A stretch of DNA of 64,000 nucleotides from Oscillospiraceae bacterium (GTDB lineage: Bacteria > Bacillota > Clostridia > Oscillospirales > Oscillospiraceae), in assembly GCA_009777775.1 (NCBI GenBank), contig WRLE01000017.1:5622-69621 (forward strand), in the 5' to 3' direction. Shown in pieces: positions 26,581-57,322 of this stretch; the first letter of the stretch is position 1, and the number at the start of each line of letters is the position of its first letter. A program made the translations under genes and the position numbers. A model generated the notes under the pieces. That model was not told the DNA's origin, did no database searches, and worked only from the letters and a program-made list of their open reading frames with translations.

Positions 26581-26598
26581 TACTGGAGGACATATAGA

Positions 26599-34153: not shown

Positions 34154-35494
34154 ATGATACGAAAAATGGGCGACATATTGCTGTTTTTCGCAAAAACCCT
34201 ACTATTTTGTATAGTCCTGAGCATCTATTTCATCGGACAAATTATCTTTTACGAACATACGCTTTTCTATTATTGGGGCAACTATATAATTATTATTTTA
34301 TATGCTGCATACCTATACTTTCTATGCAGGATCTATCAAGCATTCATGATTGGAAGCTTAAACCCAACGGAAATAATCCTATCATGGATACTCTGCCTTG
34401 CAGTGACCAACACCCTCCAATACCTGATACTCAGCCTGGTGCAAAGTAGCCTTTTGTCAATTTTCGGTTTTCTCGCAGTGCTCACAGCGCAAATAATCAT
34501 CCTCATACCATTGACGCTGCTAATAGACAAGCTATACTACCACCTCAACCCTGTGCAAAAAGCCATCATAATATACGGAGATGGAGAAAAAGCTAATATT
34601 TTTCAGAAAATTGTGGAAAGAAACCATAAAAAGTTTGAAATATCCAATGTTATATCCCAAGACGAAGCAATAGAAACAATAAAAAGCATCATAGAAAGCT
34701 CCGACTGCGTGATATTTATGGAGATAAATGAAAAAAGCAGAAGTATCCTAATGGAGCATTGCTTTTTACACAATAAAAGATCATACATCATGCCAGCATT
34801 TTCCGATATCATGATAAATACAGCGGAAATAGCATGGATATCAGACATCCCGCTATATCTGCCAAAAAGCTCCGAACCAGACATGGGAACGAGATTCATG
34901 AAACGCTGCATGGACATTTTTATATCCCTCTTTGCCATTGTGCTACTGAGCCCAATCATGCTCATCACATGGCTACTCATCGTTCTTTATGACAGACAAA
35001 AGGGCATCTATAAGCAAGTTCGGGTAACCAAAGGTGGAAAACTCTTCACTTTATACAAATTTCGCTCCATGCGCACAGATGCAGAAGACGATGGCATCCC
35101 CAGGCTCACCACAAAGGACGATGACAGAATCACCCCCATAGGCAGATTCATACGCAAAACAAGAATAGACGAACTCCCCCAGCTTTTCAACGTCTTAGCG
35201 GGAAGCATGTCCCTGGTTGGTCCCCGCCCCGAACGACCGGAAATCGCAAAACAATACGAGGAAATTTACCCCAACTTTTCCCTGAGAACAAAGGTGAAAG
35301 CAGGCTTAACAGGCTTTGCTCAAATCCACGGCAGATACAACACAGCCCCCGATGAAAAGCTGCTCATGGACATAATGTATATAGAACGATTCACAATTTG
35401 GCAAGACTGCAGACTGATATTACAAACCTTAAAAGTCCTATTCAAACCCTCCAGCACAGAAGGCGTTGACAAAGACAAGGAAACGGCGTTGTGA
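34154..35494 (+). CDS. Polyprenyl-phosphate hexose-1-phosphate transferase (WbaP/WsaP/CpsE family initiating enzyme)
   Basis: N-terminal multi-TM block, a central soluble domain, and a C-terminal bacterial sugar transferase domain (KRCMDIFISLFAIVLLSPIMLI, YKFRSMR, DELPQLFNVLAGSMSLVGPRPERP, GLTGFAQI). Confidence 0.9.
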   Translation: MIRKMGDILLFFAKTLLFCIVLSIYFIGQIIFYEHTLFYYWGNYIIIILYAAYLYFLCRIYQAFMIGSLNPTEIILSWILCLAVTNTLQYLILSLVQSSLLSIFGFLAVLTAQIIILIPLTLLIDKLYYHLNPVQKAIIIYGDGEKANIFQKIVERNHKKFEISNVISQDEAIETIKSIIESSDCVIFMEINEKSRSILMEHCFLHNKRSYIMPAFSDIMINTAEIAWISDIPLYLPKSSEPDMGTRFMKRCMDIFISLFAIVLLSPIMLITWLLIVLYDRQKGIYKQVRVTKGGKLFTLYKFRSMRTDAEDDGIPRLTTKDDDRITPIGRFIRKTRIDELPQLFNVLAGSMSLVGPRPERPEIAKQYEEIYPNFSLRTKVKAGLTGFAQIHGRYNTAPDEKLLMDIMYIERFTIWQDCRLILQTLKVLFKPSSTEGVDKDKETAL

Positions 35495-35497
35495 ATT

Positions 35498-35525
35498 AGG
35501 AATGAGGAGTTAGGAGTTAGGAATG
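35498..35525. repeat. Four tandem heptamers AGGAATG AGGAGTT AGGAGTT AGGAATG; stacked SD sequences, with the last ATG being the start codon of the next gene
   Basis: Read directly. It begins 3 nt after the TGA stop of the WbaP-like gene, in the same TGAATT context as at 34000. Confidence 0.9.
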
Positions 35526-37124
35526 GCGAAAAGAACAACTACTGACCTTTCTGAGCGTAGAATGGTTGCGATGTACTCCCAGGTGGATAAATGGCAAAAC
35601 AGATTAGCAGCAACGCTAGTCTTTATGATATTTTGCCTCCAACCCCTCTACCTAAACAGCGACCGTTATTTTCGTCTAACCTGGCATAAATTCGTATTTT
35701 TCATCGTTTATATGATAATTGTCCTCATCGCCGTTGCTGTCATATGGCTGAGTAGAATTTTCAACAAACCAAGACTAGTCATTAGAGAAAAACCAAACCT
35801 AGCAGAATGGGCTATACTTGCCTTTGGGCTACTAGCCATAATATCCGCCATCATATCACCATATAAAAAAATGATAGACATAAGAGGTCTACCAGTGGAT
35901 TGGAAAATCGGACTAAACGAACGATATGACGGCATTGTTACCCAACTTATGTATATAGCCATATTTTTCATCGTCGGACGCTGGTATAAACCCAGTGAAA
36001 AACAATTCATCTTCTTTGGTATAGCAGCAATTATAGTCGCCGGAATCGGAATCCTACAATTTTATGGAATGGACTTTCTAAAACTCTGGCCCAATCACAT
36101 CCCCGAATACCATAAAGAAAACTACTATGACTTGGTATTTCGCTCCACGCTGGGAAACACAAATATCGTATCCACATATGTCTGCGCCGCAGTAATATTA
36201 TGCGGATTTTTATATATAAAATCGAACAGTAATTGGAAATACCTCTGGCTAGCAGCCAGTAGCCTGAACTTCTGGCTCATGGACTTGGCAGATGCCGATT
36301 CTGGGCGAGTGGGTGTACTGGCAGCTATGATATTCATGATACCATATATCATCGAAAGCACAAAAACCATGGGAAAAACCCTTACCCTGGCAGCCTCGTG
36401 GATAAGCCTGTACTCCCTCCAGAAGCTTCTCTTTGACGTGAATATAATACACATTAAGACAGTAAACAGTCTACTCCCCTTTGCCATTGCGATTGTGGTA
36501 ATGGCAGCAGCGGGGATTCTCCTTGACATAAAGGGTAAAGAGCGAGATAAAGACGCTGCTCCCAGATGGAAAATCGGACTTGCACTAATTGTGCTGATAA
36601 TATTAGCAGGACTAGGTGGGGCAGAAATTCTAGGTCGCCGCCCAGCGGATGACCCTAACCCAGGCGGCATCATATACGAAGTACGAGAAATCCTCCACGG
36701 TAATATTAAAGATGAATTTGGCACAAACCGTATATTCGTATGGCGACAGGCAATGTCCATATATTCACAAAACCCAATATTTGGATCAGGACCCGACACC
36801 TTCCTCTTCGTCTTCCCCATCGAAGCACAGTGGACATACGACGAACCCTATGACAAAGCACACAACGAATACCTCCAACTGCTCATATGCCAAGGCATAC
36901 TCGGTTTACTGAGCTATTTATTCTTCATTATCACCGTAGCAATCAAAGCGATACCCAAAGCATTCAAAAACCCACTTTTAACAGTCGTTCTAGCAGCATT
37001 CATAGGCTATCTCACCCAAGGATTCTTCAACATAAGTCTACCCATAACTAGCCAGCTCCTATGGGTCTTCGCAGGAATGCTAGTTAATAAAAATGTATGG
37101 GCTTCCGATTCAATAAGTGAATGA
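35523..37124 (+). CDS. O-antigen ligase / Wzy_C family polytopic membrane protein (candidate WaaL- or WsaB-like glycan transferase)
   Basis: About 12 predicted TM segments and a large loop carrying RIFVWRQA...GSGPDTF...AHNEYLQLL, characteristic of the Wzy_C/O-antigen ligase family. Confidence 0.8.
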   Translation: MAKRTTTDLSERRMVAMYSQVDKWQNRLAATLVFMIFCLQPLYLNSDRYFRLTWHKFVFFIVYMIIVLIAVAVIWLSRIFNKPRLVIREKPNLAEWAILAFGLLAIISAIISPYKKMIDIRGLPVDWKIGLNERYDGIVTQLMYIAIFFIVGRWYKPSEKQFIFFGIAAIIVAGIGILQFYGMDFLKLWPNHIPEYHKENYYDLVFRSTLGNTNIVSTYVCAAVILCGFLYIKSNSNWKYLWLAASSLNFWLMDLADADSGRVGVLAAMIFMIPYIIESTKTMGKTLTLAASWISLYSLQKLLFDVNIIHIKTVNSLLPFAIAIVVMAAAGILLDIKGKERDKDAAPRWKIGLALIVLIILAGLGGAEILGRRPADDPNPGGIIYEVREILHGNIKDEFGTNRIFVWRQAMSIYSQNPIFGSGPDTFLFVFPIEAQWTYDEPYDKAHNEYLQLLICQGILGLLSYLFFIITVAIKAIPKAFKNPLLTVVLAAFIGYLTQGFFNISLPITSQLLWVFAGMLVNKNVWASDSISE

Positions 37125-39910: not shown

Positions 39911-39914
39911 GCTC

Positions 39915-39928: not shown

Positions 39929-39929
39929 T

Positions 39930-40136: not shown

Positions 40137-40179
40137 GCAGAGACGAAATTGAAATGGTTGTTGAATAATTAGGTATAAA

Positions 40180-41607: not shown

Positions 41608-42588
41608 GTGCAATTAACAAAAAAACGATTAGCCATATTTACAATGTTGATGACTGTCATTTATTTTGTTCCACTAATAAACCTACCCGATAGCATTGTA
41701 GGTACAAGAGGTGAGAACTTAATGCTTTTTGTGCCAAAAGTGTTTTTTTTGAGTCTCACCGCTGCGATAAGTACAGGAATACTTCTTGTTTTAATCCTTA
41801 AAAGAAATTATGTAAAAGAACAAATTTCAACTTTTCTAAGATACAGGCATTTACTTAAACTCCTAGTGAAGCGTGACTTCATTATGCGTTATCGAAAGAG
41901 TGTATTAGGTATTTTATGGTCATTATTAAACCCATTGTTAACAATGCTCGTAATAACAATGGTTTTCTCATTTATTTTTAAAAACCAAGTCGATAATTTT
42001 CCAGTTTACTTATTGTCAGGACAAATCATATTTGGATTTTTTAGCGAATCTACTACTCAATCTATGCAGTCAATTCTATCGAGCGAAAGTATAATTAGAA
42101 AAATATATGTTCCAAAGTATATATTTCCCATGGCGAAGGTGTTCTCATCGCTACTAAATTTACTATTTTCATTTCTTGCTTTTTTACTGGTTTTTATAAT
42201 TACTGGAGCTAATTTTTCGTGGACAATGCTATTATTACCAATCCCAATTATATACACCTTTGTGTTTTCACTTGGGATTTCAATGCTCTTAAGTTCCATG
42301 GCGGTTTTTTTCCGCGACCTAACATACTTGTACAGTGTTTTTATTACATTACTAACTTATTTGACCCCTCTATTCTATCCTGTATCGATTCTACCAGAGA
42401 AAGTTGTACCTGTAATTGGCTTTAACCCAATGTATCATTATGTCGATTATGCTCGAAGTGTTGCTTTATATAGTACTGTTCCCGATTTGTGGTCTAATAT
42501 TGTTTGTTTAGGATTTGCACTTGCTGCACTTTGTATAGGAACTTTTGTCTTCATGAACCAGCAGGAAAAATACATACTATATATGTAA
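41608..42588 (+). CDS. wzm: ABC-2 type polysaccharide/teichoic-acid exporter permease (Wzm/TagG)
   Basis: YRHLLKLLVKRDFIMRYRKSVLGILWSLLNPLL followed by six TM segments. GTG start with a roughly 60-aa N-terminal extension carrying an extra TM; the true start is uncertain. Confidence 0.8.
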   Translation: MQLTKKRLAIFTMLMTVIYFVPLINLPDSIVGTRGENLMLFVPKVFFLSLTAAISTGILLVLILKRNYVKEQISTFLRYRHLLKLLVKRDFIMRYRKSVLGILWSLLNPLLTMLVITMVFSFIFKNQVDNFPVYLLSGQIIFGFFSESTTQSMQSILSSESIIRKIYVPKYIFPMAKVFSSLLNLLFSFLAFLLVFIITGANFSWTMLLLPIPIIYTFVFSLGISMLLSSMAVFFRDLTYLYSVFITLLTYLTPLFYPVSILPEKVVPVIGFNPMYHYVDYARSVALYSTVPDLWSNIVCLGFALAALCIGTFVFMNQQEKYILYM

Positions 42589-42605
42589 AAACGAGGATAA
42601 CAAAA

Positions 42606-43343
42606 ATGAATGTAGAATCTGCTATTGAAGTGAATGATGTATCAATGATGTTTCACCTTAGTAAAGATAGAATCGTTGGACTAAAAGAATACATAATAAA
42701 GGCAGTAAAGCGTCAACTTTTTTATGAAGAATTTTGGGCATTAAGAAATATAAGCTTTGATGTTAAAAAAGGTGAGGTTTTTGGCATCATGGGACTAAAC
42801 GGTGCTGGTAAATCTACATTATTAAGAATAATTGCTGGAGTATTTAAACCTACAAAGGGGTATGTAGTTATAAATGGTGCAATTTCTCCTCTTCTTGAAC
42901 TTGGTGCTGGTTTTAGCCCAGAATTTTCTGCACGTGATAACATATACATGAATGGCGCAATGTATGGACACTCTCCGAAATTTATGGATAAACTTTATAA
43001 CGAAATTATCGAATTTGCTGAACTAAAAGACTTCGAAAATGTTGCATTAAAAAATTTTTCAACAGGAATGAGTGCTAGACTAGGCTTTTCAATTGCAACA
43101 AGTGTACAACCTGACATTCTCATAGTAGATGAGGTCTTAGGGGTTGGAGACTATTTGTTTCGGAAAAAGTGCGAAGACCGCATCAACGCCATGATATCGA
43201 ATGGAGCAACTGTACTCATAGTTTCGCACAGTATTAGCACTATTAAGGAAATGTGCACACGTGCTATCCTCTTAGAAAAGGGAGAAGTTAAATGTCTAGG
43301 TAATGTTGATGAGGTATGTGAAGTATATGGTGATAATCTGTAG
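42606..43343 (+). CDS. wzt: Polysaccharide/teichoic-acid ABC exporter ATP-binding protein (Wzt/TagH), short form without a C-terminal carbohydrate-binding domain
   Basis: GAGGA RBS before ATG 42606. Walker A GLNGAGKSTLL, signature FSTGMSARLGFS, Walker B ILIVDEVLGVGD, H-loop VSHS. The ORF-track N-terminal extension overlaps wzm and was rejected. Confidence 0.9.
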   Translation: MNVESAIEVNDVSMMFHLSKDRIVGLKEYIIKAVKRQLFYEEFWALRNISFDVKKGEVFGIMGLNGAGKSTLLRIIAGVFKPTKGYVVINGAISPLLELGAGFSPEFSARDNIYMNGAMYGHSPKFMDKLYNEIIEFAELKDFENVALKNFSTGMSARLGFSIATSVQPDILIVDEVLGVGDYLFRKKCEDRINAMISNGATVLIVSHSISTIKEMCTRAILLEKGEVKCLGNVDEVCEVYGDNL

Positions 43344-43484: not shown

Positions 43485-44129
43485 ATGAATAGTATTACAA
43501 TACTCGATGATCTAGTAAGTCGATATCCAATCCTTAATGATAATAAATCGGAAATACTTGTAGCAACAGAATGTATATACAATGCTTTCGCATCTGGTAA
43601 AAAAATATTGGTTGCTGGTAACGGTGGCAGCGCAGCTGACGCAGAACATATTGTTGGCGAACTGATGAAATCATTTGTTATCCGTAACAGGGTGGTAGAA
43701 CCTTCTATAGAAGCAATGCTGTTAGAAAAGTATGGAGATGATGGGTCTGAACTCGCAAAAAAGCTTGAAGGAGCATTACCAGCAATCCCATTAACTGGAT
43801 TTATTGGATTAGCAACTGCATTTGCCAATGATGTTGACCCACAGGTTTCATTTGCTCAGCAAGTATATGGCTTGGGTCATGAAGGAGACATTTTTTTAGC
43901 TATATCAACATCGGGTAATTCTAGAAACCTAATAAATGCATTAATGGTTGCCGATGCAAAAGGATTAGTAACTATCGGATTAACGGGTCGTAACGGAGGA
44001 ATGTTTAATAATTATTGTCATTACCTTATACATGCTCCGGAGGATGAAACCTATAAAATTCAGGAACTACACTTACCGATATATCACACCATTTGTTTAA
44101 TGCTAGAGTTTGAATTTTTTGGAGGATAA
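43485..44129 (+). CDS. gmhA: D-sedoheptulose-7-phosphate isomerase (SIS domain)
   Basis: ILVAGNGGSAADAEHIVGELMKSF, LAISTSGNSRNLINAL, and a length of about 200 aa. Confidence 0.85.
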   Translation: MNSITILDDLVSRYPILNDNKSEILVATECIYNAFASGKKILVAGNGGSAADAEHIVGELMKSFVIRNRVVEPSIEAMLLEKYGDDGSELAKKLEGALPAIPLTGFIGLATAFANDVDPQVSFAQQVYGLGHEGDIFLAISTSGNSRNLINALMVADAKGLVTIGLTGRNGGMFNNYCHYLIHAPEDETYKIQELHLPIYHTICLMLEFEFFGG

Positions 44130-44132
44130 TAA

Positions 44133-45563
44133 ATGACTGCACTCGATAATCTTAATAATGTCACAGTTCTTGTAGCTGGTGATTTTATGTTAGATAAATA
44201 CTATTATGGTGATATTACACGATTGTCACCAGAAGCACCTGTACCGGTTGTTAATGTGCAAGGTGAGCGGTGTGTACCTGGTGGAGCCGCAAATGTAGTA
44301 AACAACCTGTGTAGACTTGGTTGTAAAGTAAAATCATTCGGCATAATTGGCGATGATACAGAAGGAAAGATACTGAGCAATCTTCTTAATGATGCTCATA
44401 CTGATACGAATTTTCTTTTACATGATGAATCATATAAAACTATTATCAAAACAAGAATAGTTGGAAATAACAATCATCAAATTGCGCGACTTGATTTTAA
44501 TGAAAATTATCCTTTCCCAGCTACTTCTAAATTACTGGAGAGCCTTGATGCAGCTCTCGAAAATTGTAATATTGCTATTTTATCCGATTATGATAAAGGT
44601 TTTTGTAACGAAGAAACAACAAAAACACTCATTAGTGCATGTAAGAAGTATAATATACCGCTCATAATTGATCCTAAAGGAAAAAATTGGAACAAATACA
44701 ATGGTGCATCATGGATTGCTCCTAATTTCAGCGAATTTTCTGAAATGATTGGAAAATCAATAAAAAATACTGATGAAGATATAAGCGATAATATAGCCAT
44801 TATTAGTTCATCATTCACAATCGAGAATGTACTAGTAACTCGTTCAGAACAAGGAATGACACTTTATAACGGAGAAAAAATATACCATATTCGATCAATA
44901 GCTCGTGAGGTATTTGATGTATCTGGTGCTGGTGATACAGTAGTTGCAGTTTTAGCTGCGCTTTTAGGAGCTGGAGTAGACAAACAAAATGCTGTCGAGA
45001 TTGCTAACACTGCAGCTGGTATTGCTGTAGGAAAAAGCGGAACTGCTACCGTTAGTAAAGGTGAATTGGCTGCAGAGTTACAAACAAATCGTAATGATAA
45101 AGCTTTATCAAAAATAATGAGTTGGGATATGTTATTTAGCCGTGTCGAACAGTGGAAAAGCGAAAATAAAACGATAGCTGTAGCGAATGGATGCTTTGAT
45201 ATTTTACATAGAGGTCACACTTCACTTATTAATGCTGCATCACAATGTGCTGATATCTTAATAATGGCTATTAATACAGACGAAACTGTACGTAAGCTTA
45301 AAGGCGATAGTAGACCTATAAACAGTGAGAATGACCGAGCGTATGTTTTAGCAGCATTAGAAAGTGTAGATGCTGTTGTCATATTTGGCGAAGATACTCC
45401 CGAGGAGTTACTAAGCCACATTTTACCTGATGTGCTTGTAAAAGGTGCAGAGTACACTCTTGAGCAAGTTCCAGGACGGCAGTACTCTAAACGAGTTGAG
45501 TTAGTAGAATATATTGATGGATATTCAACAACAGCAATCGTTAATAAATCAAAAAATGGATAA
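44133..45563 (+). CDS. hldE: Bifunctional D-beta-D-heptose 7-phosphate kinase / D-beta-D-heptose 1-phosphate adenylyltransferase
   Basis: Kinase domain VLVAGDFMLDKYYYGDITRLSPEAPVPVV and DVSGAGDTVVA. Cytidylyltransferase-like domain VANGCFDILHRGHTSLI ... RPINSENDRAYVLAALESVDAVVIF. Confidence 0.9.
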   Translation: MTALDNLNNVTVLVAGDFMLDKYYYGDITRLSPEAPVPVVNVQGERCVPGGAANVVNNLCRLGCKVKSFGIIGDDTEGKILSNLLNDAHTDTNFLLHDESYKTIIKTRIVGNNNHQIARLDFNENYPFPATSKLLESLDAALENCNIAILSDYDKGFCNEETTKTLISACKKYNIPLIIDPKGKNWNKYNGASWIAPNFSEFSEMIGKSIKNTDEDISDNIAIISSSFTIENVLVTRSEQGMTLYNGEKIYHIRSIAREVFDVSGAGDTVVAVLAALLGAGVDKQNAVEIANTAAGIAVGKSGTATVSKGELAAELQTNRNDKALSKIMSWDMLFSRVEQWKSENKTIAVANGCFDILHRGHTSLINAASQCADILIMAINTDETVRKLKGDSRPINSENDRAYVLAALESVDAVVIFGEDTPEELLSHILPDVLVKGAEYTLEQVPGRQYSKRVELVEYIDGYSTTAIVNKSKNG

Positions 45564-45573
45564 TTGAAATTAT

Positions 45574-46509: not shown

Positions 46510-46515
46510 TTTTAA

Positions 46516-47673
46516 TTGCTTCATAAATTTATCGTTTGGCTAAAAGCACGATTACCACATGGATTTAAGCAGAAACTGAAAAAGCTACTTGGTATAGGTT
46601 CAACTGCGCAGGAAGTAAGTCTGTTTGCTAGACTCGATATAGATTCATCAAAAATTAATATTGCGATTTATGCTGGCGGAGGTTTAGGTGACTTCATTGT
46701 ATATAAAGCGATAATTGATAGTTTATTAAATAACTACAATTGTATGATTTACCTATTCACTTTGAGTTATGAAAATGCAGTAACCATTCTTGGAAATACA
46801 ATCGGATTAGAAGTTCATTACTCAGTTATGACTCAAAATAACGAGCAGTTTGACCTCGTATTAGATATGGATCATTTTATAAATGTACGAGATTTTAATA
46901 TGAGCAGACTAAAAAATAAATCACTAAAATTATACGATGATGTAAATAGAATTATTGCATATAATAGAGCTAACATCCCCTCTACTGATAATATACTAGC
47001 ACAAAGAAATGTGATAATTTTTCGTGCAAAATACTTAGGGTTAAATAGATGGACTCAATTATCATGTGGCGGCGTGTTCGATATGACCTCTATGCGCAGC
47101 GGAATCACAATAGATGAATGTAGCAGCATTATAGATTCATATAGTTTAAAAAATAACTCATATATAACAATAAGTCGTGGTGCCGATGTTGATATGGGTG
47201 GTATGCGCCAAACAAAGATATGGCCATTGCATCGGTATGTTGAATTTGTAAGTTTATTCAAAGCAAAATATACAACAATTAAAATTGTACAGCTTGCGCT
47301 TAAAGATGAGCCAGAAATACCTGGTACAGACATAGTTATCCGTGATGCAAGCTTTGAGGACGTGAAGGTAATTTTATCTAACTCCCAAGCTCATATATCA
47401 AATGAAGGTGGATTGGTTCACACAGCCACACAACTAGGAACACGATGTATAGTTCCTTTCGGACCGACCCCAGCTCATTATTACGGATATCCTGAAAATA
47501 TAAATATTGTGTCGCCTGTTTGTAAAGGGTGTATGGAAACAACCGATGACTGGTTTCAACGTTGCCCTAGAGGTTATGAATCAGCTGAATGTATGGAAGC
47601 AATAACTGGATATATGATATTAGAAAAATTAGCAAATCATATATTAATTCTAAATGCGGATTATAACTTATGA
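46516..47673 (+). CDS. GT9-like (heptosyltransferase-family) glycosyltransferase, paralog 1
   Basis: INIAIYAGGGLGDFIV (N-terminal GD motif), KIWPLHRYVEFVSLF, ISNEGGLVHTATQLGTRCIVPFGPT. TTG start, with no in-frame ATG nearby. Four-Cys C-terminal motif CKGC...WFQRC...C. Confidence 0.65.
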   Translation: MLHKFIVWLKARLPHGFKQKLKKLLGIGSTAQEVSLFARLDIDSSKINIAIYAGGGLGDFIVYKAIIDSLLNNYNCMIYLFTLSYENAVTILGNTIGLEVHYSVMTQNNEQFDLVLDMDHFINVRDFNMSRLKNKSLKLYDDVNRIIAYNRANIPSTDNILAQRNVIIFRAKYLGLNRWTQLSCGGVFDMTSMRSGITIDECSSIIDSYSLKNNSYITISRGADVDMGGMRQTKIWPLHRYVEFVSLFKAKYTTIKIVQLALKDEPEIPGTDIVIRDASFEDVKVILSNSQAHISNEGGLVHTATQLGTRCIVPFGPTPAHYYGYPENINIVSPVCKGCMETTDDWFQRCPRGYESAECMEAITGYMILEKLANHILILNADYNL

Positions 47674-47716: not shown

Positions 47717-49474
47717 ATGAGTATTCAGCAATCGAGTGTTATTAACAAAAATAAACTAAGTAACCAACATAAATCTCGCTCATTTGTAATAAAAAGCATT
47801 TTAAATCGATATAGCTCTATATTTAGCTACATTATTATATTATTATGCGTTTTATTGAAATTCCCAAATATCATAAGTGTGCCATATCTATGGGCTGAAG
47901 ATGCACGAATATTTATGCAGCGTGCAATCGATTATGGTTATAAATCGATTTTTATGGTATATGCTGGATACTACCATTTTTTTACACAATTTTTTACATA
48001 TTTATGGGTACAAGTTTGTTCATTTTTAGGTACATTCGTTCCACTTCCTTATTTTATGCAGTACACAGCTCATATCACAAATTCATTGTTTCTATTTTTT
48101 TTTGTAACATCACGCTTTGACTGGTTAATAGCAAATAAGTATAATCGATTATTATGTATTACATTAACTATTCTTTTACTCCCACAAAACACAAGTGAAG
48201 TTTGGGGGTCAATTACACAGTTTCAATGGTGGGCAACCTTTTTTGTGTTTTTATCTGGTCTTGATATTTTACATGATAAAGAAAAACTGCTTCCAGAGTA
48301 TAAGTATTTTTTAATACTACTAATAATATCTTTTAGTTCACCATGTGTTGTTTTCGTATTAGGAATAATTGTTTTAAAAATCCTACTATACATAATACAT
48401 AATAACAACTATATTAGTATACAAAGAATTTCAAAGCATGATTGTATAAAACTATTACTAATAATTATTGCATTTATTATCCAAATAAATAGTATATTCA
48501 GAACAAGAACACCTAGTTTAAATGCTGGTACCTTAAATAGAAAATTGGAACTTGCAATTGAAGGATATTTTCGTTTTTGTGGGTTACTATTTCAACCCTG
48601 GAGGGTTTACCCATTTGTTTTTCGTGGTATATTTAGCGGTTTAGTTCTATCAGTAGTCTTTGGTGTGATTATTTGGGAAATTAATATATTTTGTACGAAG
48701 GAATTTCGTTTGGTATCGTTGTATGGGCTAATATTTAGTCTATCATTTTGGCTCTTATGCTGTGTAAGTTTTAGAGATATAGACTGGTTTGATATGTATA
48801 TACGGGGTCAAGGTGGCGGTAGATACGGATTTAATATACATATAACACTCATTTTCGTGTCACTCATCCGAGTATTAGGTTTCTTATATAGAATATCAAA
48901 AACTCAAAAAATATGTGCCTTATGTTGTCTTATATATTTCTTTTTATTATCATTTGGTGGAGTAGGCCTTATGAGTAATGAGGAAGTTGGTAAAACAGAA
49001 TACTGGATAAAATATTCAAATTTATTCACATCAATAGGTAATGAACTTATGTTTACACCTACACCTCTCGGTTTTGTTAGAATACCAATATCATTTGAGA
49101 AAATACAACTAAATAAAGGCAACATTGATGTTGTGATTATTTCAAACGAAATTACCCAGCAATTTATTAACAATTCATTTATTTATAGGAACGCTCTCAT
49201 TGACCAAGATACATTAAGAATATCTGGTTGGTTTTATAGTGTTGATTACGAAATTTATTTAGAAAAAGTTTTAGTAAAAGTAGAAAACACATATTATCCA
49301 TGTGATACATTTCTATATGATGAAAATAATATGACAAAAAAAACAGGTTTCTACGTTGATATTCCATGTTCATCTTTTAAAAATAGTAGCGTTTTATTAA
49401 CTTTTTATGGACTAGATAATAATAACAGCGAGTATTTCGAAAAAACAGTTATTTTCCCATATGTTGAATCATGA
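47717..49474 (+). CDS. Polytopic membrane protein (at least 10 TM) with a C-terminal extracytoplasmic domain; candidate GT-C-type glycosyltransferase
   Basis: GGAG RBS before ATG 47717. An acidic first-loop motif YLWAEDARIF after TM1, many TM segments, and a soluble beta-rich C-terminus of about 170 aa. No recognisable family by eye. Confidence 0.45.
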   Translation: MSIQQSSVINKNKLSNQHKSRSFVIKSILNRYSSIFSYIIILLCVLLKFPNIISVPYLWAEDARIFMQRAIDYGYKSIFMVYAGYYHFFTQFFTYLWVQVCSFLGTFVPLPYFMQYTAHITNSLFLFFFVTSRFDWLIANKYNRLLCITLTILLLPQNTSEVWGSITQFQWWATFFVFLSGLDILHDKEKLLPEYKYFLILLIISFSSPCVVFVLGIIVLKILLYIIHNNNYISIQRISKHDCIKLLLIIIAFIIQINSIFRTRTPSLNAGTLNRKLELAIEGYFRFCGLLFQPWRVYPFVFRGIFSGLVLSVVFGVIIWEINIFCTKEFRLVSLYGLIFSLSFWLLCCVSFRDIDWFDMYIRGQGGGRYGFNIHITLIFVSLIRVLGFLYRISKTQKICALCCLIYFFLLSFGGVGLMSNEEVGKTEYWIKYSNLFTSIGNELMFTPTPLGFVRIPISFEKIQLNKGNIDVVIISNEITQQFINNSFIYRNALIDQDTLRISGWFYSVDYEIYLEKVLVKVENTYYPCDTFLYDENNMTKKTGFYVDIPCSSFKNSSVLLTFYGLDNNNSEYFEKTVIFPYVES

Positions 49475-49489
49475 TAATGTAGGTATTTT

Positions 49490-50359
49490 ATGCGGTTAGT
49501 TTCTCAACTAGTAAAATTGATACGCCCTAAGCAATGGATTAAGAACAGCTATGTTTTTGCTGCACTAGTGTTTTCGGGCAGTTTATTCAATCTCTCCATG
49601 TTTATGATGTGTTGTTTTGGGTTTACAATATTTTGTATTTCATCAAGTTGTGTATACATCGTTAATGATGCAATAGATGCTAGCAGCGACCGTGCACATC
49701 CACAGAAAATGAATCGTCCTTTAGCAAGTGGTGCTGTTAGTATTACTCAAGCAATGCTGCTATTATTGACATTGTTAATATTATTATTACTCAGCTTTGT
49801 ATATGTTAACATACATTTCAGAGTAGTTATATCTATCTACTTACTAATAAATTTACTATATTCTTTTTGGCTAAAAAATGAACCTATAATCGACATCATA
49901 TGCATTTCATTAGGCTTTGTTTTGCGTGCAATTTCTGGAGCTGTTATTATTAACGTAACAATATCACCATGGTTACTAATTTGTACATTTTTATTATCAT
50001 TATATTTAGCGATTAACAAAAGAACTTGCGAAATAAAAAATATTGCGATAGAAGCAGCATATAAACGGAAGGTATTAGAATTTTATACAATCGACATGCT
50101 CAGTAGTATGTCATCGGTTGTTTTATCTGCGACTATTACAGCATATTGTATTTATATAATAACTACAGAATTAATGGCTAATATGCTAATTACAATACCT
50201 TTTGTTGTCTATGGGTTATTTCGATATCAACATATAGCTAATTCAACTGAATATGCTGAGTCACCAGAGACAGCTATCCTAAAAGATAAACCTTTACTAA
50301 TATGTGTACTAATCTGGGGATTAGCATGTGTTTCATTCATGTATATTAATTTTACATAG
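49490..50359 (+). CDS. UbiA-superfamily polyprenyl-phosphate phosphoribosyltransferase (DPPR-synthase-like)
   Basis: LIRPKQWIKNSYVFAALVF, the Asp-rich motif YIVNDAIDASSDRAHPQKMNRPLASG, and eight to nine TM segments. The pattern resembles the Rv3806c subfamily. Confidence 0.75.
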   Translation: MRLVSQLVKLIRPKQWIKNSYVFAALVFSGSLFNLSMFMMCCFGFTIFCISSSCVYIVNDAIDASSDRAHPQKMNRPLASGAVSITQAMLLLLTLLILLLLSFVYVNIHFRVVISIYLLINLLYSFWLKNEPIIDIICISLGFVLRAISGAVIINVTISPWLLICTFLLSLYLAINKRTCEIKNIAIEAAYKRKVLEFYTIDMLSSMSSVVLSATITAYCIYIITTELMANMLITIPFVVYGLFRYQHIANSTEYAESPETAILKDKPLLICVLIWGLACVSFMYINFT

Positions 50360-50406
50360 TTTGAATAGATAAAAGCAGAGCATTGGTATTAGGAGAAGCG
50401 ATATAT

Positions 50407-51453
50407 ATGGCTAAGTATTTTATAACTGGCGGTGCGGGTTTTTTAGGAATTAACCTAACTCGGCATCTTCTACAATTAGGTCACACTATTGTCTCTTATG
50501 ATTTTGATGAATCATATAATTATCCCGAAAAAGAAGATATTAGAGTAAAAGTAATAACTGGTGATATAAGAAACATTGGTTTACTCAAAGAATCTATGTT
50601 GACTTGCGATATTGTTGTACATTGTGCTGCTGCATTACCTTTATATAGTAAAAATGATATATTTACTACAGATATCAATGGCACAAAAAATGTCTTGCAA
50701 TCTGCTCTTGAAATTGGGATTGAGAGAGTTATTCAAATATCATCAACTGCTGTATATGGGATACCCGATCACCATCCAATATATGAAACTGATCAATTAA
50801 CAGGTGTTGGACCTTATGGTATAGCTAAAATTGAAGCTGAAAGAGTTTGTGAAGAGTATCGCACAAATGGATTGTGTGTACCAATAATTCGTCCAAAAAG
50901 TTTTATCGGGCCAGAACGATTGGGGGTGTTCGCTCTATTTTACGATTGGGCGAAAGATGGTAGAGGATTTCCAATGATTGGTAAAGGTAATAACCGATAT
51001 CAATTCCTCGATGTTTATGATTTATGTGAGGCAATTTATCTATGTGCTACTCTTGAAAAAAGCATCGTTAACGATACGTTTAACATAGGAGCGGAAGAAT
51101 TTACTACGATGCGCGAAGACTATCAAGCGGTGCTTGATTATGCTGGATACGGGAAAAAAATTAGGACTTTTCCTGCTGCTCCAATGATATGGACTTTGCG
51201 TTTTTTAGAGCTGCTCCATTTGTCTCCATTATACAAATGGGTTTATGAAACTGCTGCAACAGATTCGTTTGTATCAATAGACAAAGCCAAAGAAAAACTA
51301 GGGTTTGAGCCTATATACTCAAATAAAGAAGCTCTACTACGAAATTATGACTGGTATATTAATAATTTGGAGACAATTAGTAACGTATCAGGAGTTACTC
51401 ATCGTGTTCCATGGAAGCAAGGAATCCTTGGGTTGGTAAAGAAATTCTTTTAA
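50407..51453 (+). CDS. NAD-dependent epimerase/dehydratase (extended SDR)
   Basis: FITGGAGFLGINL (GxxGxxG), catalytic YGIAK (YxxxK). The start was set at ATG 50407. Confidence 0.85.
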   Translation: MAKYFITGGAGFLGINLTRHLLQLGHTIVSYDFDESYNYPEKEDIRVKVITGDIRNIGLLKESMLTCDIVVHCAAALPLYSKNDIFTTDINGTKNVLQSALEIGIERVIQISSTAVYGIPDHHPIYETDQLTGVGPYGIAKIEAERVCEEYRTNGLCVPIIRPKSFIGPERLGVFALFYDWAKDGRGFPMIGKGNNRYQFLDVYDLCEAIYLCATLEKSIVNDTFNIGAEEFTTMREDYQAVLDYAGYGKKIRTFPAAPMIWTLRFLELLHLSPLYKWVYETAATDSFVSIDKAKEKLGFEPIYSNKEALLRNYDWYINNLETISNVSGVTHRVPWKQGILGLVKKFF

Positions 51454-51526
51454 CAGACAATATTATATTATGCATATAATATAGAGTCATACCTTAGTAG
51501 CTAACTACACTTCAGAGATGTGATTT

Positions 51527-52087
51527 ATGAATGTCTACGATTTTGATGGAACAATATATGATGGAGACAGCACAAAAGACTTCTTTATCTTTTGCGTGAG
51601 AAGGTACCCCAAAATTTGTATTATACTTCCGAAATTTTTTTACTATTTTATTCAGTACATAATCGGTAATTGCGATAAAGAAAGATTAAAAGAATCATTT
51701 TTTGGATTTTTGCGATTGTTACCAAATACGCAAGACGAAGTGATGCTATTTTGGGAAAAACACGAAATAAAGATTCAAAAATGGTATCTTTCGCAGAAAC
51801 GGAGTAACGATGTTATTATTTCTGCTTCACCTGGATTTTTACTACAACCAATCTGCGAAAAATTAGGTATTTCTTGCATTGCATCAGTAGTAAACCCTGA
51901 TAATGGGTTATATACTGGTTTAAACTGTTATGGTAATGAAAAAGTGAGACGTTTTCGAGAAATATATATTGATGCATCAATTAATTGTTTTTATACGGAT
52001 TCATTATCTGATATACCAATGGTTGAGATAGCACAATCTGCTTATATTGTGAAAAATGGTAATGTAACAAAATATGACATATTTTGA
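51527..52087 (+). CDS. HAD-superfamily hydrolase/phosphatase
   Basis: Motif I VYDFDGTIYDGDS (DxDxT), motif II ISASP, motif IV-like YTDSLSD. Confidence 0.7.
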   Translation: MNVYDFDGTIYDGDSTKDFFIFCVRRYPKICIILPKFFYYFIQYIIGNCDKERLKESFFGFLRLLPNTQDEVMLFWEKHEIKIQKWYLSQKRSNDVIISASPGFLLQPICEKLGISCIASVVNPDNGLYTGLNCYGNEKVRRFREIYIDASINCFYTDSLSDIPMVEIAQSAYIVKNGNVTKYDIF

Positions 52088-52233: not shown

Positions 52234-53250
52234 ATGAATATATTTTCAAAAATTATAAATAGACTAACTAATAATAAACGCTTCTCAATTCTGGAAAATG
52301 ACCGCACAGAACTATTTAGCAGAATCGATGAAATGATGATTCGAATTGATAATATTGAAAACAAAGCTAATACATCATTAAATTCAAATATTACAAAATA
52401 CAATGATTCATACTTGGAATTTGAGTATTTAAATGAACTACTTAGAGTAGCAAAAATGTTGTATGAAACAAGAGAAGACCCCAATACTATATATGCATCA
52501 CCTCCGGAGTATACAAAAGATACTGGGCTGTTGCTTGACGAAAATGTATTTCGTAATTTTAGTCATGCACATGGTTTTTCATTAATATCTTTTTCACAAC
52601 GTAGTCAAGATAAAATTGTTGAAGCATTACTCTTCGAGGCTGGCATTACAAAACCTAGCTACCTCGATATTGGTGCTAATACTCCAGTAGAAATGTCAAA
52701 TACAGCTTTGTTTTACCGAAAGGGGTGTAGTGGTGTTGTTGTAGATGCTAATGAGTCTCTTCGGCAAAGATGGACTGAGTTGCGACCTAACGATATATTT
52801 GTTAATGCTGCTGTTTCAACAATTAGTGGTGAAAAGATACCGTTTTACATGCTGGACATGTACTCACCGCGTAACTCTGTTGATTTTGAAACTATAAATG
52901 CTTTTATAGAAGAATCAAAGAAAACTGAAAATCCTTGGGAAATTATGAAAACAATTGAAGTAACAACCATTACAATAAATGAAATCGTCGATATATATTG
53001 TAATGGGATATTTCCTGACTATTTATCTATAGACATAGAAGGAATGGATTTACATGTTCTTCAAAATGCTGATTTCACCTTATCGGCTCCAAAAGTAATA
53101 AGTATTGAAGACCAATCAACCGAATTGTATCATACACTAAAAGAAAAAGGTTTTTTTCCAATAGTATCTGTTGGAGATACAATCGCTGTTCACAGTAGTT
53201 TAGCACCGATAGTGCGTCCATGGATAGATATCGAAGAATCTAAACTATGA
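52234..53250 (+). CDS. FkbM-family methyltransferase with a 45-aa N-terminal helical module
   Basis: YLDIGANTPVEMSNTALFYRKGCSGVVVDANE (SAM motif I) and LSIDIEGMDLHVL. The N-terminus is homologous to that of the 53313 gene. Confidence 0.75.
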   Translation: MNIFSKIINRLTNNKRFSILENDRTELFSRIDEMMIRIDNIENKANTSLNSNITKYNDSYLEFEYLNELLRVAKMLYETREDPNTIYASPPEYTKDTGLLLDENVFRNFSHAHGFSLISFSQRSQDKIVEALLFEAGITKPSYLDIGANTPVEMSNTALFYRKGCSGVVVDANESLRQRWTELRPNDIFVNAAVSTISGEKIPFYMLDMYSPRNSVDFETINAFIEESKKTENPWEIMKTIEVTTITINEIVDIYCNGIFPDYLSIDIEGMDLHVLQNADFTLSAPKVISIEDQSTELYHTLKEKGFFPIVSVGDTIAVHSSLAPIVRPWIDIEESKL

Positions 53251-53312
53251 TGCTTACATAGATGATGTAATGGACAAGTTCTATTTAGAGCATCTCATCA
53301 AAGGAGTATTAT

Positions 53313-54590
53313 ATGAATATACTTAAAAAAATTAAAAATAGATTGATAGATAACCAACGCTTTACAATACTTGAAAAAGATCGATCAGAGTTATTCAATC
53401 GAATTGATGAAATCTGGACTCGTCTAGAAGATATAGATAAAAAAACAATTAATAATTCATCATCATTTAATATAGGGAATTCTAGCGCAACGAATGAACC
53501 TAATAACCCTCTCAATCAAAATAAATTGAACATTGCGTTTTTAATACGTGGTGGTTTAGGTGATATTGTAATGCTGGCAAACTATATCTATATGTTTCGT
53601 AAAAAATTCTCTGATGACATAATAAATATTGATATTTTTTCTGATGATCACAGATTCGAATCAACACGAACCGTTTTTAATGGTGTTCAATCTAGCTTTA
53701 TTAATAATCTTTATGCTAGAAACAAAGATGCAGCTAAATTGAATTATTATGATTTATTTATCGATATAGCACGATATCCTGATATAAAGAAGCGCGATTT
53801 ATCAAGAATATCAGAAATGGTTCCTGAGTTAATTGAATATATATTTTTATGTGAACGTTTTCGTGCAGAATACTCACGTTTTTTTACTCACCAAGGACCT
53901 ACAGATGGTCAATCCGCAATGGTCAGCATCATTAAAGGAGCTAAACGATACCAACAAGCTGATATTTATGGATTCCTTGGTATGTCCGAAAAATATGAAC
54001 ATAGTATTCATATTGCAGAAAATGAGAATGCTTACTTACAACAGCTTGGTTTATATAATCGAAACTTCATTACAATTAATCGAGGAAACGATAGTGCGTA
54101 TGCTAAAAACAGTACCAAAATCTGGCCTCTCTCATATTACGGTATTTTAATACGTTTATTAAAAAAGAGATTTCCCAACATTATCTTGGTACAAATTGGT
54201 GCAGACAGCACAGTATTTCCAATTTTACCAGGTGCTGATATGCATCTTGTTTCTCAGACTAGTCTCGAACAAGTAAAGGTATTGCTAAAACATGCAACTT
54301 TACATATTGATGGCGAAGGCGGTTTAGTACATATGAGACATGCTTTGAATGGCGGTAAATCAATCGTACTATTTGGTCCAACATCTGCTGAGTTTTTTGG
54401 TTATTCTGAGAATGAAAATATTGTTGGAAAAGGGTGCGATGTCTGGTGCGAATGGGCATTTAGTAATTGGCAAGATCGTTGTTTACGAGGAAAATCCTCT
54501 GCTTTTTCGCATTGTATGGCATCAATTATTCCTGAAAAAGTTTTAATGCATATAGAAAATGTGTTAACAAATAATCAGGAGGAGCAATAA
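53313..54590 (+). CDS. GT9-like glycosyltransferase, paralog 2, with the same N-terminal helical module
   Basis: LNIAFLIRGGLGDIVM, KIWPLSYYGILIRLL, HIDGEGGLVHMRHALNGGKSIVLFGPT, and the Cys motif CDVWC...WQDRC...C. Confidence 0.65.
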   Translation: MNILKKIKNRLIDNQRFTILEKDRSELFNRIDEIWTRLEDIDKKTINNSSSFNIGNSSATNEPNNPLNQNKLNIAFLIRGGLGDIVMLANYIYMFRKKFSDDIINIDIFSDDHRFESTRTVFNGVQSSFINNLYARNKDAAKLNYYDLFIDIARYPDIKKRDLSRISEMVPELIEYIFLCERFRAEYSRFFTHQGPTDGQSAMVSIIKGAKRYQQADIYGFLGMSEKYEHSIHIAENENAYLQQLGLYNRNFITINRGNDSAYAKNSTKIWPLSYYGILIRLLKKRFPNIILVQIGADSTVFPILPGADMHLVSQTSLEQVKVLLKHATLHIDGEGGLVHMRHALNGGKSIVLFGPTSAEFFGYSENENIVGKGCDVWCEWAFSNWQDRCLRGKSSAFSHCMASIIPEKVLMHIENVLTNNQEEQ

Positions 54591-54593
54591 TAT

Positions 54594-56156
54594 ATGAGTA
54601 ATAGTAAAATAACTGTAGCATTTAGATTAAATGGTGGTATAGGTACTTATTTAGTCGAATTAAACTTCATCAAGTTCTTTTATGATGCTTTTCCTGATGT
54701 AATTATTTCGGTATTTGGTTCTACTTCAGAAGCAGTTAATGCTGGACTTATGAACTCCCAATACTTTATCGCAAAATATCATGTTCGTAGTATGTTTCGC
54801 GAGTATGGCTATGATTTAATAATTGACTTAAACTGGTTTCCAAAAGTTATATATGTAAATATGCCAAAAATTCAAACTCAAGTACCCGGACTTCCTGAAA
54901 TAATAAAACAATGGGTAGCTTTTGAGACTGATCCTGCAACAAACAATTTTATTCGAAATGACTCGATTTTTGATTATAACATATATACATATGCTATAGC
55001 AAACAAAAAAAACAGGCTAAATGTAATGGATATTAATGAAGCTTTAGGTATAGAAAGTCAATTTCGCTATACCTTGTATCCACTCAGAGACGAACTTGAT
55101 GTACTTAATAAATTTGGCTTAAGTGAGCTTAATTACATAACTTTACAACAAGGAGTTAATGCTGACTCAAATTCAAAACAATCTCCTAAACAATGGCCAA
55201 TTCATAATTTCAATGTACTTTGTCGTTTACTTAAACATGAATATCCCGATATTATTTTAGTGCAACTCGGAGAGTTAGCTAATAACGAACCAATCGAAGG
55301 TGTTGATATGAATTATTTAGGAGACACAGACTTTGAGGAACTTAAAATACTTTTGAAAAACGCATTTTTACATATAGACGGTGAGTGCGGTATGATGCAT
55401 ATGCGTAAAGCTATGTTAGCTGGTCCTTCGGTAGTATTGTATGGTCAAACTCCTATAGAAATTTATAGCTATGATGATAATTTGAATATCTATACTAATG
55501 TTTGCATGGGATGTAGTAAGTTATTTAGCGGATGGAAAAGACGTTGTCTTTTGAAAGAGCCAATTTGTATGACTTCAATAACACCCGAAATGGTACTTAA
55601 TGTTATTAGAAATCATATTGAAAATGAAACTAAATACAAAACAATCAAACTCACAAAACTTCAGGAGCTTTTATCCGATTCAACTATTAAGCTTGATCCC
55701 GAATGGGTTGAATTGTGGTTAAAGGAACGAATTATTTACGATTATTGGGTAGAAAAAATAAAGCTAAAGGATTTATTAGCTACAAACTTGACAGAGAATG
55801 GTTATGTACCTATTCCGCTTGAAGAAACAGCAGCATTCAAATACATAAGTGGAAATCATCAACAATACATTGAATACATAAAATTGAACGATATTTATAA
55901 TCCTGGCCACGAGCGTACATTGGAAAAAATTGATAATTTAATTGAGCAACTGAACACACACGGATATAACCAAAATCAATTTATAGTAATTGATGGAAAC
56001 AATATTATATTTGATGGCTCGCATCGCGCAAGTTGGTTGATGTATATGTATGGCGGTGATTATGAAGTAGAAACGATTAAGATATATCTTGATGAGAATA
56101 CTGGCTCTGTTCTATACTCACAATTAATTGAAGAAATTTCAGAATTGAACGAGTAA
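54594..56156 (+). CDS. GT9-like glycosyltransferase, paralog 3, fused to a C-terminal ParB/Srx-like domain
   Basis: ITVAFRLNGGIGTYLV, KQWPIHNFNVLCRLL, HIDGECGMMHMRKAMLAGPSVVLYGQT, and the Cys motif CMGC...WKRRC...C. The C-terminal 140 aa ends in IEQLNTHGYNQNQFIVIDGNNIIFDGSHRASWL (the DGxHR motif of the ParB/sulfiredoxin fold). Confidence 0.6.
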   Translation: MSNSKITVAFRLNGGIGTYLVELNFIKFFYDAFPDVIISVFGSTSEAVNAGLMNSQYFIAKYHVRSMFREYGYDLIIDLNWFPKVIYVNMPKIQTQVPGLPEIIKQWVAFETDPATNNFIRNDSIFDYNIYTYAIANKKNRLNVMDINEALGIESQFRYTLYPLRDELDVLNKFGLSELNYITLQQGVNADSNSKQSPKQWPIHNFNVLCRLLKHEYPDIILVQLGELANNEPIEGVDMNYLGDTDFEELKILLKNAFLHIDGECGMMHMRKAMLAGPSVVLYGQTPIEIYSYDDNLNIYTNVCMGCSKLFSGWKRRCLLKEPICMTSITPEMVLNVIRNHIENETKYKTIKLTKLQELLSDSTIKLDPEWVELWLKERIIYDYWVEKIKLKDLLATNLTENGYVPIPLEETAAFKYISGNHQQYIEYIKLNDIYNPGHERTLEKIDNLIEQLNTHGYNQNQFIVIDGNNIIFDGSHRASWLMYMYGGDYEVETIKIYLDENTGSVLYSQLIEEISELNE

Positions 56157-56261
56157 TAGGTTTTATAAACATTAATATAGTAAGCTTTATCATCAGGCAT
56201 TAACAAAAATCTCATTTGTTAATCGTTTTTGAAATATATTTATAAACCAAGGAGGTGTATG

Positions 56262-57302: not shown

Positions 57303-57322
57303 AACTAAAAGGTAAATAACTG

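Follow-up and report, generated by a model that had tools for sequence, protein, structure and literature searches.

A candidate lipid-linked pentofuranose side-chain cassette in a surface-glycan operon of an Oscillospiraceae bacterium

Four adjacent genes were examined in a 64,000-nt stretch of DNA from an Oscillospiraceae bacterium (contig WRLE01000017.1; the whole stretch is called the window here). The open reading frames (ORFs) are tightly spaced on the + strand and span 47717-52087. Their products are a polytopic membrane protein of 585 aa, a UbiA-fold enzyme, an extended short-chain dehydrogenase/reductase (SDR) and a phosphatase of the haloacid dehalogenase (HAD) IB class. Comparison of sequences suggests that the four genes are probably a lipid-linked pentofuranose side-chain cassette of the Citrobacter youngae O1/O2 type, situated in a heptose-based surface-glycan operon that depends on an ATP-binding cassette (ABC) transporter. 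Sequence tests establish that the UbiA-fold enzyme is of the decaprenyl-phosphate 5-phosphoribosyltransferase (DPPRS) type, that the phosphatase is a HAD-IB protein and the SDR a member of the extended family, each retaining its catalytic motifs, and that the gene set recurs in different taxa. The locus is a new example and not a new principle; the system type had already been predicted for Gram-positive bacteria (PMC11127046).

The reference system was described by Kelly et al. (PNAS 2024; PMC11127046), who showed that the ABC-transporter-exported O antigen of C. youngae O1/O2 bears alpha-pentofuranose side chains. In that system ORF15 is a HAD-type phosphoribose phosphatase (PRP) fused to a UbiA-type polyprenyl-phosphate 5-phosphoribosyltransferase (PPPRS), and undecaprenyl-phosphate-ribofuranose (undecaprenyl-P-Ribf) is made from phosphoribosyl pyrophosphate (PRPP). 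ORF14 is a presumed flippase, and a flippase is a defining component of the published three-component system. ORF12 is a glycosyltransferase (GT) of the GT-C fold with a catalytic Asp next to the first transmembrane (TM) helix and, at its C-terminus, a carbohydrate-binding module (CBM); it founded CAZy family GT136 and was reported with an EpsG-family match in CDD. In serotype O2, ORF13, a GalE-like SDR with TGxxGxxG and YxxxK motifs, converts the donor so that xylofuranose (Xylf) replaces Ribf. The same study found DprE1/E2 homologues with the arabinofuranose (Araf)-containing glycans that it surveyed, reported candidate loci in Gram-positive bacteria, and noted that transporters vary and that most of the GT-C genes are annotated as hypothetical. 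On Gram-positive, S-layer and archaeal precedents, or on a wide distribution of the SDR, literature searches gave nothing beyond that paper and its commentary.

The UbiA-fold enzyme and the HAD-IB phosphatase

The gaps between the four genes and their neighbours measure, in order, 43, 15, 23, 73 and 146 nt. A terminator scan placed no terminator between the four genes, and the number of terminator-like sites equalled that expected from shuffled sequence. An earlier reading of the window from its letters alone (the sequence-only reading) had named these four genes and their motifs; the ORFs were confirmed on the + strand at the coordinates that it gave, and the quoted motifs were present in the translations. 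The combination of UbiA, SDR, HAD and membrane protein genes was seen again in unrelated genomes, and the arrangement is therefore not a product of chance.

The UbiA-fold ORF (49490-50359, + strand) carries YIVNDAIDASSDRAHPQKMNRPLASG, and the peptide motif quoted for it, YIVNDAIDASSD..., is present in its translation. The protein passed the cut-offs of two NCBIfam DPPRS equivalog models, NF008977 (248.1 bits against 234) and NF008978 (216.9 against 207). Models for heme-O synthase, 4-hydroxybenzoate prenyltransferase (UbiA) and geranylgeranylglyceryl phosphate (GGGP) synthase scored at most 38 bits. The best solved structure was Mycobacterium tuberculosis Rv3806c (PDB 8j8j; E=2.5e-34), followed by the next UbiA enzyme at 4e-5. 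To place the active site, residues of Rv3806c that bind Mg2+, ribose, pyrophosphate and the 5'-phosphate were taken from the structure paper (PMC10994848) and mapped onto the window protein through an HMMER alignment. Ten of the 11 PRPP/Mg-binding residues were kept: R22, K28, N73, D77, D81, K87, R90, Y138, K143 and K208 are identical, and the exception, Q135, is N121 in the window protein. These results strongly suggest a DPPRS-type phosphoribosyltransferase and predict PRPP-dependent transfer. The grouping with DPPR synthases that the sequence-only reading had proposed is thus borne out, and the menaquinone or heme-O prenyltransferase identity that it had opposed to this was ruled out, as the NCBIfam scores favour the DPPRS models.

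Homologues of this enzyme are numerous (4196 at E<=1e-10), many come from Clostridia and Anaerolineales, and the DPPRS name is already in use at NCBI. A phage collection gave one weak, unannotated UbiA match.

The last gene of the cassette (51527-52087, + strand) encodes a HAD-IB phosphatase (PF12710, 1.8e-17; TIGR01488, 47.4 against a cut-off of 45) with the nucleophile motif DxDxT present as DFDGT at residues 5-9. The enzyme is a candidate polyprenyl-P-ribose-5-phosphate 5'-phosphatase, the PRP role. It is physically linked to the PPPRS, being adjacent in the cassette, and its orthologues occur beside DPPRS genes elsewhere. It is 44% identical to a HAD-IB protein encoded directly after the DPPRS gene on a Lactococcus cremoris exopolysaccharide (EPS) plasmid, and 50% identical to a HAD::GtrA-like fusion in the cassette designated L001, which lies on an archaeal-looking contig. 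Fusions of HAD to UbiA also exist, as in model NF006088 and a protein of Rhizobium sp. CCGE531. The window phosphatase showed a weak colinear match to the PRP domain of the Rhizobium fusion (20% identity, pairwise E=6e-4) and no match to the HAD portion of NF006088. Its family and motif, its adjacency in the cassette and the known fusions suggest that the HAD-IB protein removes the 5-phosphate. The sequence-only reading had proposed that a HAD enzyme replaces the mycobacterial PAP2 phosphatase, and the PRP domain of ORF15 from C. youngae provides a direct experimental precedent for this (PMC11127046).

The extended SDR and the identity of the sugar

The third gene (50383-51453, + strand) encodes an extended SDR with a GalE-like fold (PF01370, 2e-38). 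The true start is probably ATG 50407, since homologues align from residue 9-11. The motif TGxxGxxG is present (GGAGFLG, residue 16), as is YxxxK (YGIAK, residue 145). The protein gave no adh_short (PF00106) match, and no NCBIfam model reached its cut-off; the top match, the hopanoid-associated HpnA model, was well under it.

The SDR was used as a probe in a scan of species-representative genomes, and linkage was counted in the best 80 loci. Relatives were found in at least 573 loci. The best 80, at 64-75% identity to the window SDR, come from Clostridia, Chloroflexota, Planctomycetota, Saccharibacteria and other groups of the candidate phyla radiation, Spirochaetes, Rubrobacter and Methanomicrobium mobile, the last being an isolate archaeon (a methanogen). 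A DPPRS-type UbiA gene lies within 10 kb of the SDR in 27 of these 80 loci, mostly directly upstream. The SDRs of the UbiA cassettes L001 and L004 are 73-75% identical to the window protein, and identity to SDRs in UbiA cassettes of unrelated taxa is 69-75%. The SDR in the cassette of Rhizobium sp. CCGE531 (pRCCGE531b) is 33% identical to it over the full length (E=3e-57). The SDR is far more conserved than its partner UbiA, which shows about 45-60% identity.

On these comparisons the window SDR is a candidate lipid-linked pentofuranose epimerase of the ORF13 type. The presence of an epimerase-type SDR makes plain Ribf less likely. In a rough split over the identity of the sugar, Xylf would come first at somewhat less than an even chance, some other sugar or none would follow, and Araf would stand third at about a quarter of the weight; for this cassette we regard Xylf as at least as likely as Araf.

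The sequence-only reading had a single SDR replacing DprE1/E2 to give Araf. If this SDR alone performed 2'-epimerisation, the donor would be polyprenyl-P-D-arabinofuranose and the cassette would be a DprE1/E2-free equivalent of the mycobacterial pathway to decaprenyl-phospho-arabinofuranose (DPA). In principle, oxidation and re-reduction at C2 are within reach of a GalE-type SDR that binds NAD tightly, the window scans gave no other candidate epimerase, and extended cassettes with an FAD oxidoreductase and a second SDR (see below) show pentose diversification by more than one route. Nevertheless, an Araf product from a lone SDR is without precedent: all Araf glycans examined had DprE1/E2 homologues, and the sole characterised single SDR, ORF13, gave Xylf (PMC11127046). 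The window SDR is moreover of the extended type with no adh_short match and so is not DprE2-like, and no FAD oxidase was found among the scanned window ORFs, so that the DprE1/DprE2-type enzyme pair is missing. We consider this route to Araf unlikely.

The SDR could also act outside the donor pathway, for example on ADP-heptose or another main-chain nucleotide sugar, in which case the cassette would add plain ribofuranose. HldD, likewise an extended SDR, is absent from the locus, and cassettes without an SDR exist, as on the Lactococcus plasmid. The SDR does match the heptose-epimerase model TIGR02197 weakly (9.4e-10), but at 38 bits against a cut-off of 274.6, and its identity as HldD was rejected on this score. 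In addition, SDRs of 64-75% identity stand directly beside UbiA in many loci without heptose genes, one of them archaeal, and the full-length similarity to the SDR of the Rhizobium PPPRS cassette points the same way. A role outside the donor pathway is improbable.

The 585-aa membrane protein

The first gene of the cassette (47717-49474, + strand) encodes a GT-C-like candidate for a polyprenyl-phosphate-sugar-dependent glycosyltransferase. Its start at ATG 47717 is supported by a GGAG 7-8 nt upstream; an alternative ATG lies upstream at 47654. The 585-aa protein gave no Pfam, NCBIfam or PDB sequence match, and an indexed homologue search returned the query alone. Exhaustive HMMER searching recovered 355 family representatives at E<=1e-3. 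Among 45 divergent family sequences the only invariant columns were E61 and D62, in a PYLWAED motif just after TM1; in the window protein they lie in WAEDARIF (residues 59-66), after the first TM helix. The first loop is predicted to be outside, because the N-terminus has six K/R and no acidic residue. None of the 45 members matched Pfam (GT families included, E<=0.1), the family profile matched nothing in PDB, and N-terminally extended members carried no informative fusion domain.

AlphaFold2 was run with the family alignment on the full-length protein (pLDDT 85.5, pTM 0.87) and on residues 1-440 (86.3 and 0.88). About 13 long helices were seen in the model, and residues ~443-583 form an Ig-like/CBM-like beta-sandwich at the C-terminus, in agreement with the sequence-only reading, which had described at least 10 TM segments, WAEDARIF and a C-terminal domain. 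In Foldseek searches against PDB, all high-probability matches with long alignments were GT-C enzymes: yeast, mammalian and archaeal STT3/AglB, ALG12, ALG6 and mycobacterial AftA, with TM-scores of 0.37-0.48 over the membrane domain. The C-terminal domain matched Ig-like sandwiches. Transporters of the major facilitator superfamily (MFS) scored only 0.12-0.18 at low probability, and an MFS-type identity was rejected on these scores (TM <0.18). No WaaL, Wzy or SEDS structure appeared in the top 50.

Family members sit in four further UbiA/SDR cassettes (L004, L032, L033 and L093). In L004 the member lies directly upstream of UbiA, split into two ORFs, with the motif PYLWGEDA; in two metagenome-assembled genomes (MAGs) of Deferribacteraceae it lies mid-way within UbiA/SDR cassettes; and in L093 it adjoins the conserved SDR. 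The gene for one member lies immediately upstream of genes for a GtrA flippase and a GtrB-like GT2 of 246 aa, an arrangement that gives it the place of GtrC in the classic three-component systems. Others accompany small GtrB/ArnC-like GT2 genes in glycan loci of the ABC-transporter type. This gene context adds weight that the fold evidence lacks and so supports the GT-C-like reading. The GT-C similarity claimed by the sequence-only reading thus holds by fold (with weak scores), by the conserved acidic motif and by gene context. Taken together, these features suggest that the 585-aa protein acts as an extracytoplasmic GT-C transferase.

Related cassettes in other genomes

A large polytopic protein, belonging to many unrelated sequence families, is encoded next to the cassette in 22 of the 27 loci with UbiA and SDR, and a flippase-type gene is present in only seven of the 27. 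An FAD amine-oxidase-type oxidoreductase is encoded as well in nine loci, and several of these also have a second SDR together with GtrA. The 585-aa protein showed no similarity to the GT-C candidates of L001 and L002.

Beyond the window (L001, 8928-9926; L004, L007, L008, L033 and L061) we observed HAD::GtrA-like TM fusions, and an FAD amine-oxidase-type oxidoreductase with a second extended SDR. This oxidoreductase and SDR pair could be a non-homologous counterpart of DprE1/DprE2.

On Lactococcus cremoris plasmid pF27D (6599-9718), genes for a hypothetical 462-aa membrane protein, DPPRS, HAD-IB and GtrA follow one another without an SDR. This gene set predicts a ribofuranose-decorated EPS in a dairy Lactococcus, a food bacterium. 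The pRCCGE531b locus of Rhizobium sp. CCGE531 is a candidate cited by Kelly et al. (PMC11127046); the neighbours of its SDR are SMR genes, a GMC oxidoreductase, a 658-aa hypothetical membrane protein, a second SDR and the HAD-UbiA fusion.

Evidence against the cassette reading and remaining alternatives

Several observations weigh against reading the four genes as a pentofuranose side-chain cassette. Across the whole window the coding strand has no small multi-TM ORF that could be a flippase gene (MATE, SMR or GtrA). In 53 of the 80 best SDR loci the 10 kb around the SDR contain no UbiA gene, and many Chloroflexota carry the SDR alone among housekeeping genes; as the linkage to UbiA is frequent and not obligatory, the substrate of the SDR could be broader or different. 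The best Foldseek E-values were 3.9e-3 and 4.8e-3, with none below 1e-3 and all TM-scores below 0.5, so that the fold by itself suggests a GT-C without settling the matter. Nor does any detectable similarity in sequence link the 585-aa protein to the GT-C candidates of the Rhizobium and Lactococcus cassettes. Finally, the EpsG-type signature reported for GT136 was absent from all family members examined. With neither this signature nor a Pfam GT match in 45 members, membership of GT136 is unlikely.

Some of these points favour a different role for the 585-aa protein, as polymerase, ligase, transporter or flippase, with the pentose used by an enzyme encoded elsewhere or placed on another acceptor, for instance an S-layer protein or a polymer of the wall. 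The statistics from Foldseek are weak, a sequence link to characterised GT-Cs is missing, a transport role is conceivable where no flippase is encoded, and several roles are suggested for the pilin glycosyltransferase TfpW in a preprint (bioRxiv 10.1101/2020.04.19.049825). Set against this, the high-probability Foldseek matches were all GT-C enzymes, MFS transporters scored far lower and WaaL, Wzy and SEDS structures were missing from the top 50; the acidic pair after TM1 is invariant, and relatives hold the GtrC position beside GtrA and GtrB. We give a role other than that of pentofuranosyltransferase little credence.

That UbiA, HAD and SDR make a polyprenyl- or other lipid-phospho-pentose for its own sake, for example as the head group of a membrane lipid rather than as a donor for glycosylation, is highly improbable: the sub-cut-off HpnA match of the SDR, its solitary occurrence in many Chloroflexota and the LPG_synthase_TM proteins of some cassettes would fit, but the cassette lies inside a glycan operon, large polytopic, GT-C-like proteins adjoin 22 of the 27 UbiA and SDR loci, and the characterised relatives all belong to donor pathways (PMC11127046, PMC10994848).

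Proposed pathway and comparison with known systems

If the four genes form a pentofuranose side-chain cassette, synthesis would begin at the cytoplasmic face, where the UbiA-type PPPRS (49490) would move ribose-5-phosphate from PRPP to polyprenyl phosphate, probably undecaprenyl phosphate. The HAD-IB phosphatase (51527) would then strip the 5-phosphate to leave polyprenyl-P-ribofuranose. The GalE-like SDR (50383) is predicted to epimerise the lipid-linked ribofuranose with bound NAD through a keto intermediate; the product would be xylofuranose, the C3 epimer, by the sole experimental precedent, with arabinofuranose, the C2 epimer, as the main alternative. Some factor would then flip the donor; the window has no GtrA, SMR or MATE gene. 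Outside the membrane, the 585-aa GT-C-like enzyme (47717) would transfer the pentofuranose to the exported glycan via E61-D62, and its C-terminal Ig-like domain plausibly binds the acceptor. We infer the reaction order, the lipid carrier, the epimerisation by the SDR and its product, and the transferase role; gene position points to the exported heptose glycan as acceptor. Each proposed step has an experimental precedent in the C. youngae work (PMC11127046).

The window locus shares with C. youngae O1/O2 a UbiA-type PPPRS, predicted here to use PRPP, a HAD-family phosphatase with the putative 5'-phosphatase role, and a GalE-like SDR with TGxxGxxG and YxxxK inside the cassette. In both, a multi-TM protein (a GT-C in C. 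youngae, a GT-C candidate in the window) has an acidic residue beside TM1 and ends in a beta-rich, CBM-like domain, and both cassettes belong to glycan loci that depend on an ABC transporter and include candidate terminators of the methyltransferase type. In contrast to C. youngae, the HAD of the window is a separate gene (a separate HAD was noted for one phage system; PMC11127046) and the locus has no flippase gene. Its GT-C candidate belongs to another, unclassified family with no EpsG-type signature. The host is a Gram-positive bacterium that encodes SLH proteins, and heptose forms the basis of the main chain.

With the mycobacterial DPA pathway (Rv3806c, Rv3807c, DprE1/DprE2 and Emb/Aft) the cassette shares a first enzyme homologous to Rv3806c with conserved substrate-binding residues, and the proposed course from lipid-P-ribose-5-P through dephosphorylation and epimerisation to extracytoplasmic GT-C transfer; AftA is among the structural matches. 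Unlike that pathway, the phosphatase is a HAD and not a PAP2 enzyme, and neither an FAD oxidase (DprE1) nor a classical SDR (DprE2) is present. The lipid is probably undecaprenyl and not decaprenyl, and the role is probably side-chain decoration and not essential arabinan polymerisation. Of the mycobacteria-like pathway put forward by the sequence-only reading, the PRPP-derived polyprenyl-P-pentofuranose donor and the GT-C logic stand; as an analogy it is not new, the system type having been characterised in 2024.

The GtrA/GtrB/GtrC and ArnC/ArnT systems follow the same logic of lipid-P-sugar synthase, flippase and GT-C, and relatives of the 585-aa protein take the place of GtrC beside GtrA and a GtrB-like GT2. 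The donor synthase of the window differs from theirs in being UbiA-type with PRPP and not a GT2 with a nucleotide sugar. The D-Araf system of Pseudomonas aeruginosa group IV pilin is likewise a non-actinobacterial case of a PPPRS-based lipid-linked pentofuranose used by an extracytoplasmic GT-C (TfpW). It differs in using DprE1/E2 homologues and a protein acceptor, the pilin, and, so far as could be tested, TfpW has no sequence relationship to the 585-aa protein.

The cassette would extend the pentofuranose side-chain pathway to an uncultured gut-type Clostridia lineage that combines SLH/S-layer proteins with a glycan based on heptose. On this reading the window glycan is predicted to carry a furanose pentose; to our knowledge mammals lack this form of sugar, which makes it potentially antigenic. 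Two functionally unannotated families are also defined: a sparse GT-C-like family with an invariant E-D pair and no Pfam model, and a very highly conserved SDR that accompanies PPPRS genes in bacteria and archaea. The pentose specificity of this SDR, once known, would give glycan predictions for hundreds of genome annotations. Araf envelope glycans are usually seen as an actinobacterial hallmark, dependent on the drug target DprE1. If the SDR, 348 aa in length, were a single-protein, cofactor-recycling polyprenyl-P-ribofuranose epimerase with D-Araf as its product, such glycans would be widespread in both prokaryotic domains and made by an enzyme unrelated to DprE1. If, in addition, the 585-aa protein founded a new GT-C family, that family, marked by the PYLWAED motif, would work with GtrB-type or UbiA-type donor synthases. 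We regard this combination as distinctly unlikely.

The glycan operon and other features of the window

Family-model scans place the cassette within a long + strand glycan operon, which in total holds two GT2 genes, four GT9-family proteins and two FkbM-type methyltransferases. An initiating phosphoglycosyl transferase of the Bac_transf type and a Wzy_C/O-antigen-ligase-like protein are encoded at 34154..37124 (+ strand; PF02397, 8.9e-62; PF04932, 8e-14). An ABC-2 permease and its ATPase, a glycan exporter of the Wzm/Wzt type, follow at 41608..43343 (+ strand; PF01061 and PF00005). The ADP-heptose genes comprise GmhA and a bifunctional HldE (43485..45563, + strand; SIS domains; NF008454, 487 bits; TIGR02198, 357 against a cut-off of 345) and GmhB (57323-57796; NF006506/TIGR00213-type match). 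Directly upstream of the cassette is a GT9-like gene (46516-47673; PF01075), and directly downstream are an FkbM-type methyltransferase and two GT9 (heptosyltransferase-family) proteins (52234..56156, + strand; PF05050 and PF01075).

Although GmhA, HldE and GmhB are present, no HldD gene was found in the glycan operon. The genome is of Gram-positive type, and it combines four GT9 proteins with GmhA/HldE/GmhB without HldD (43485-47673 and 53313-57796); this heptose gene set suggests a polymer of ADP-D-glycero-D-manno-heptose origin rather than a lipopolysaccharide (LPS) core. Very large SLH/Big_2/LRR surface proteins are encoded upstream of the operon. The attribution to a Firmicute in the sequence-only reading agrees with these flanking SLH-domain proteins and with the nearest named CoaX relatives, which are Oscillospiraceae MAGs at 62-65% identity. 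The GC content of the glycan locus (34000-64000) is 28-36%, against 43-49% for the SLH/Big_2 genes (16000-34000), a contrast consistent with horizontal acquisition of the glycan locus or with a strong compositional difference.

At their N-termini the FkbM methyltransferase and the next GT9 protein have in common a segment of ~42 aa that is nearly identical (encoded at 52234-52370 and 53313-53450; pairwise E=1e-13). It has the look of a coiled coil and may serve both proteins for docking or for setting chain length, as in WbdD-type terminators. A GSU2086-family protein with no assigned function (NF052581, 370.6 bits; cut-off 250) is encoded at 45574-46509, after HldE and before the first of the GT9 genes. 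An ATPase_2/AAA protein and a Uma2-family putative endonuclease (38468-40719) break the operon between its two GT2 genes. On the - strand at 4366-6567, a DNA cytosine-5 methyltransferase adjoins an unannotated 412-aa protein, and the two may form a restriction-modification pair.

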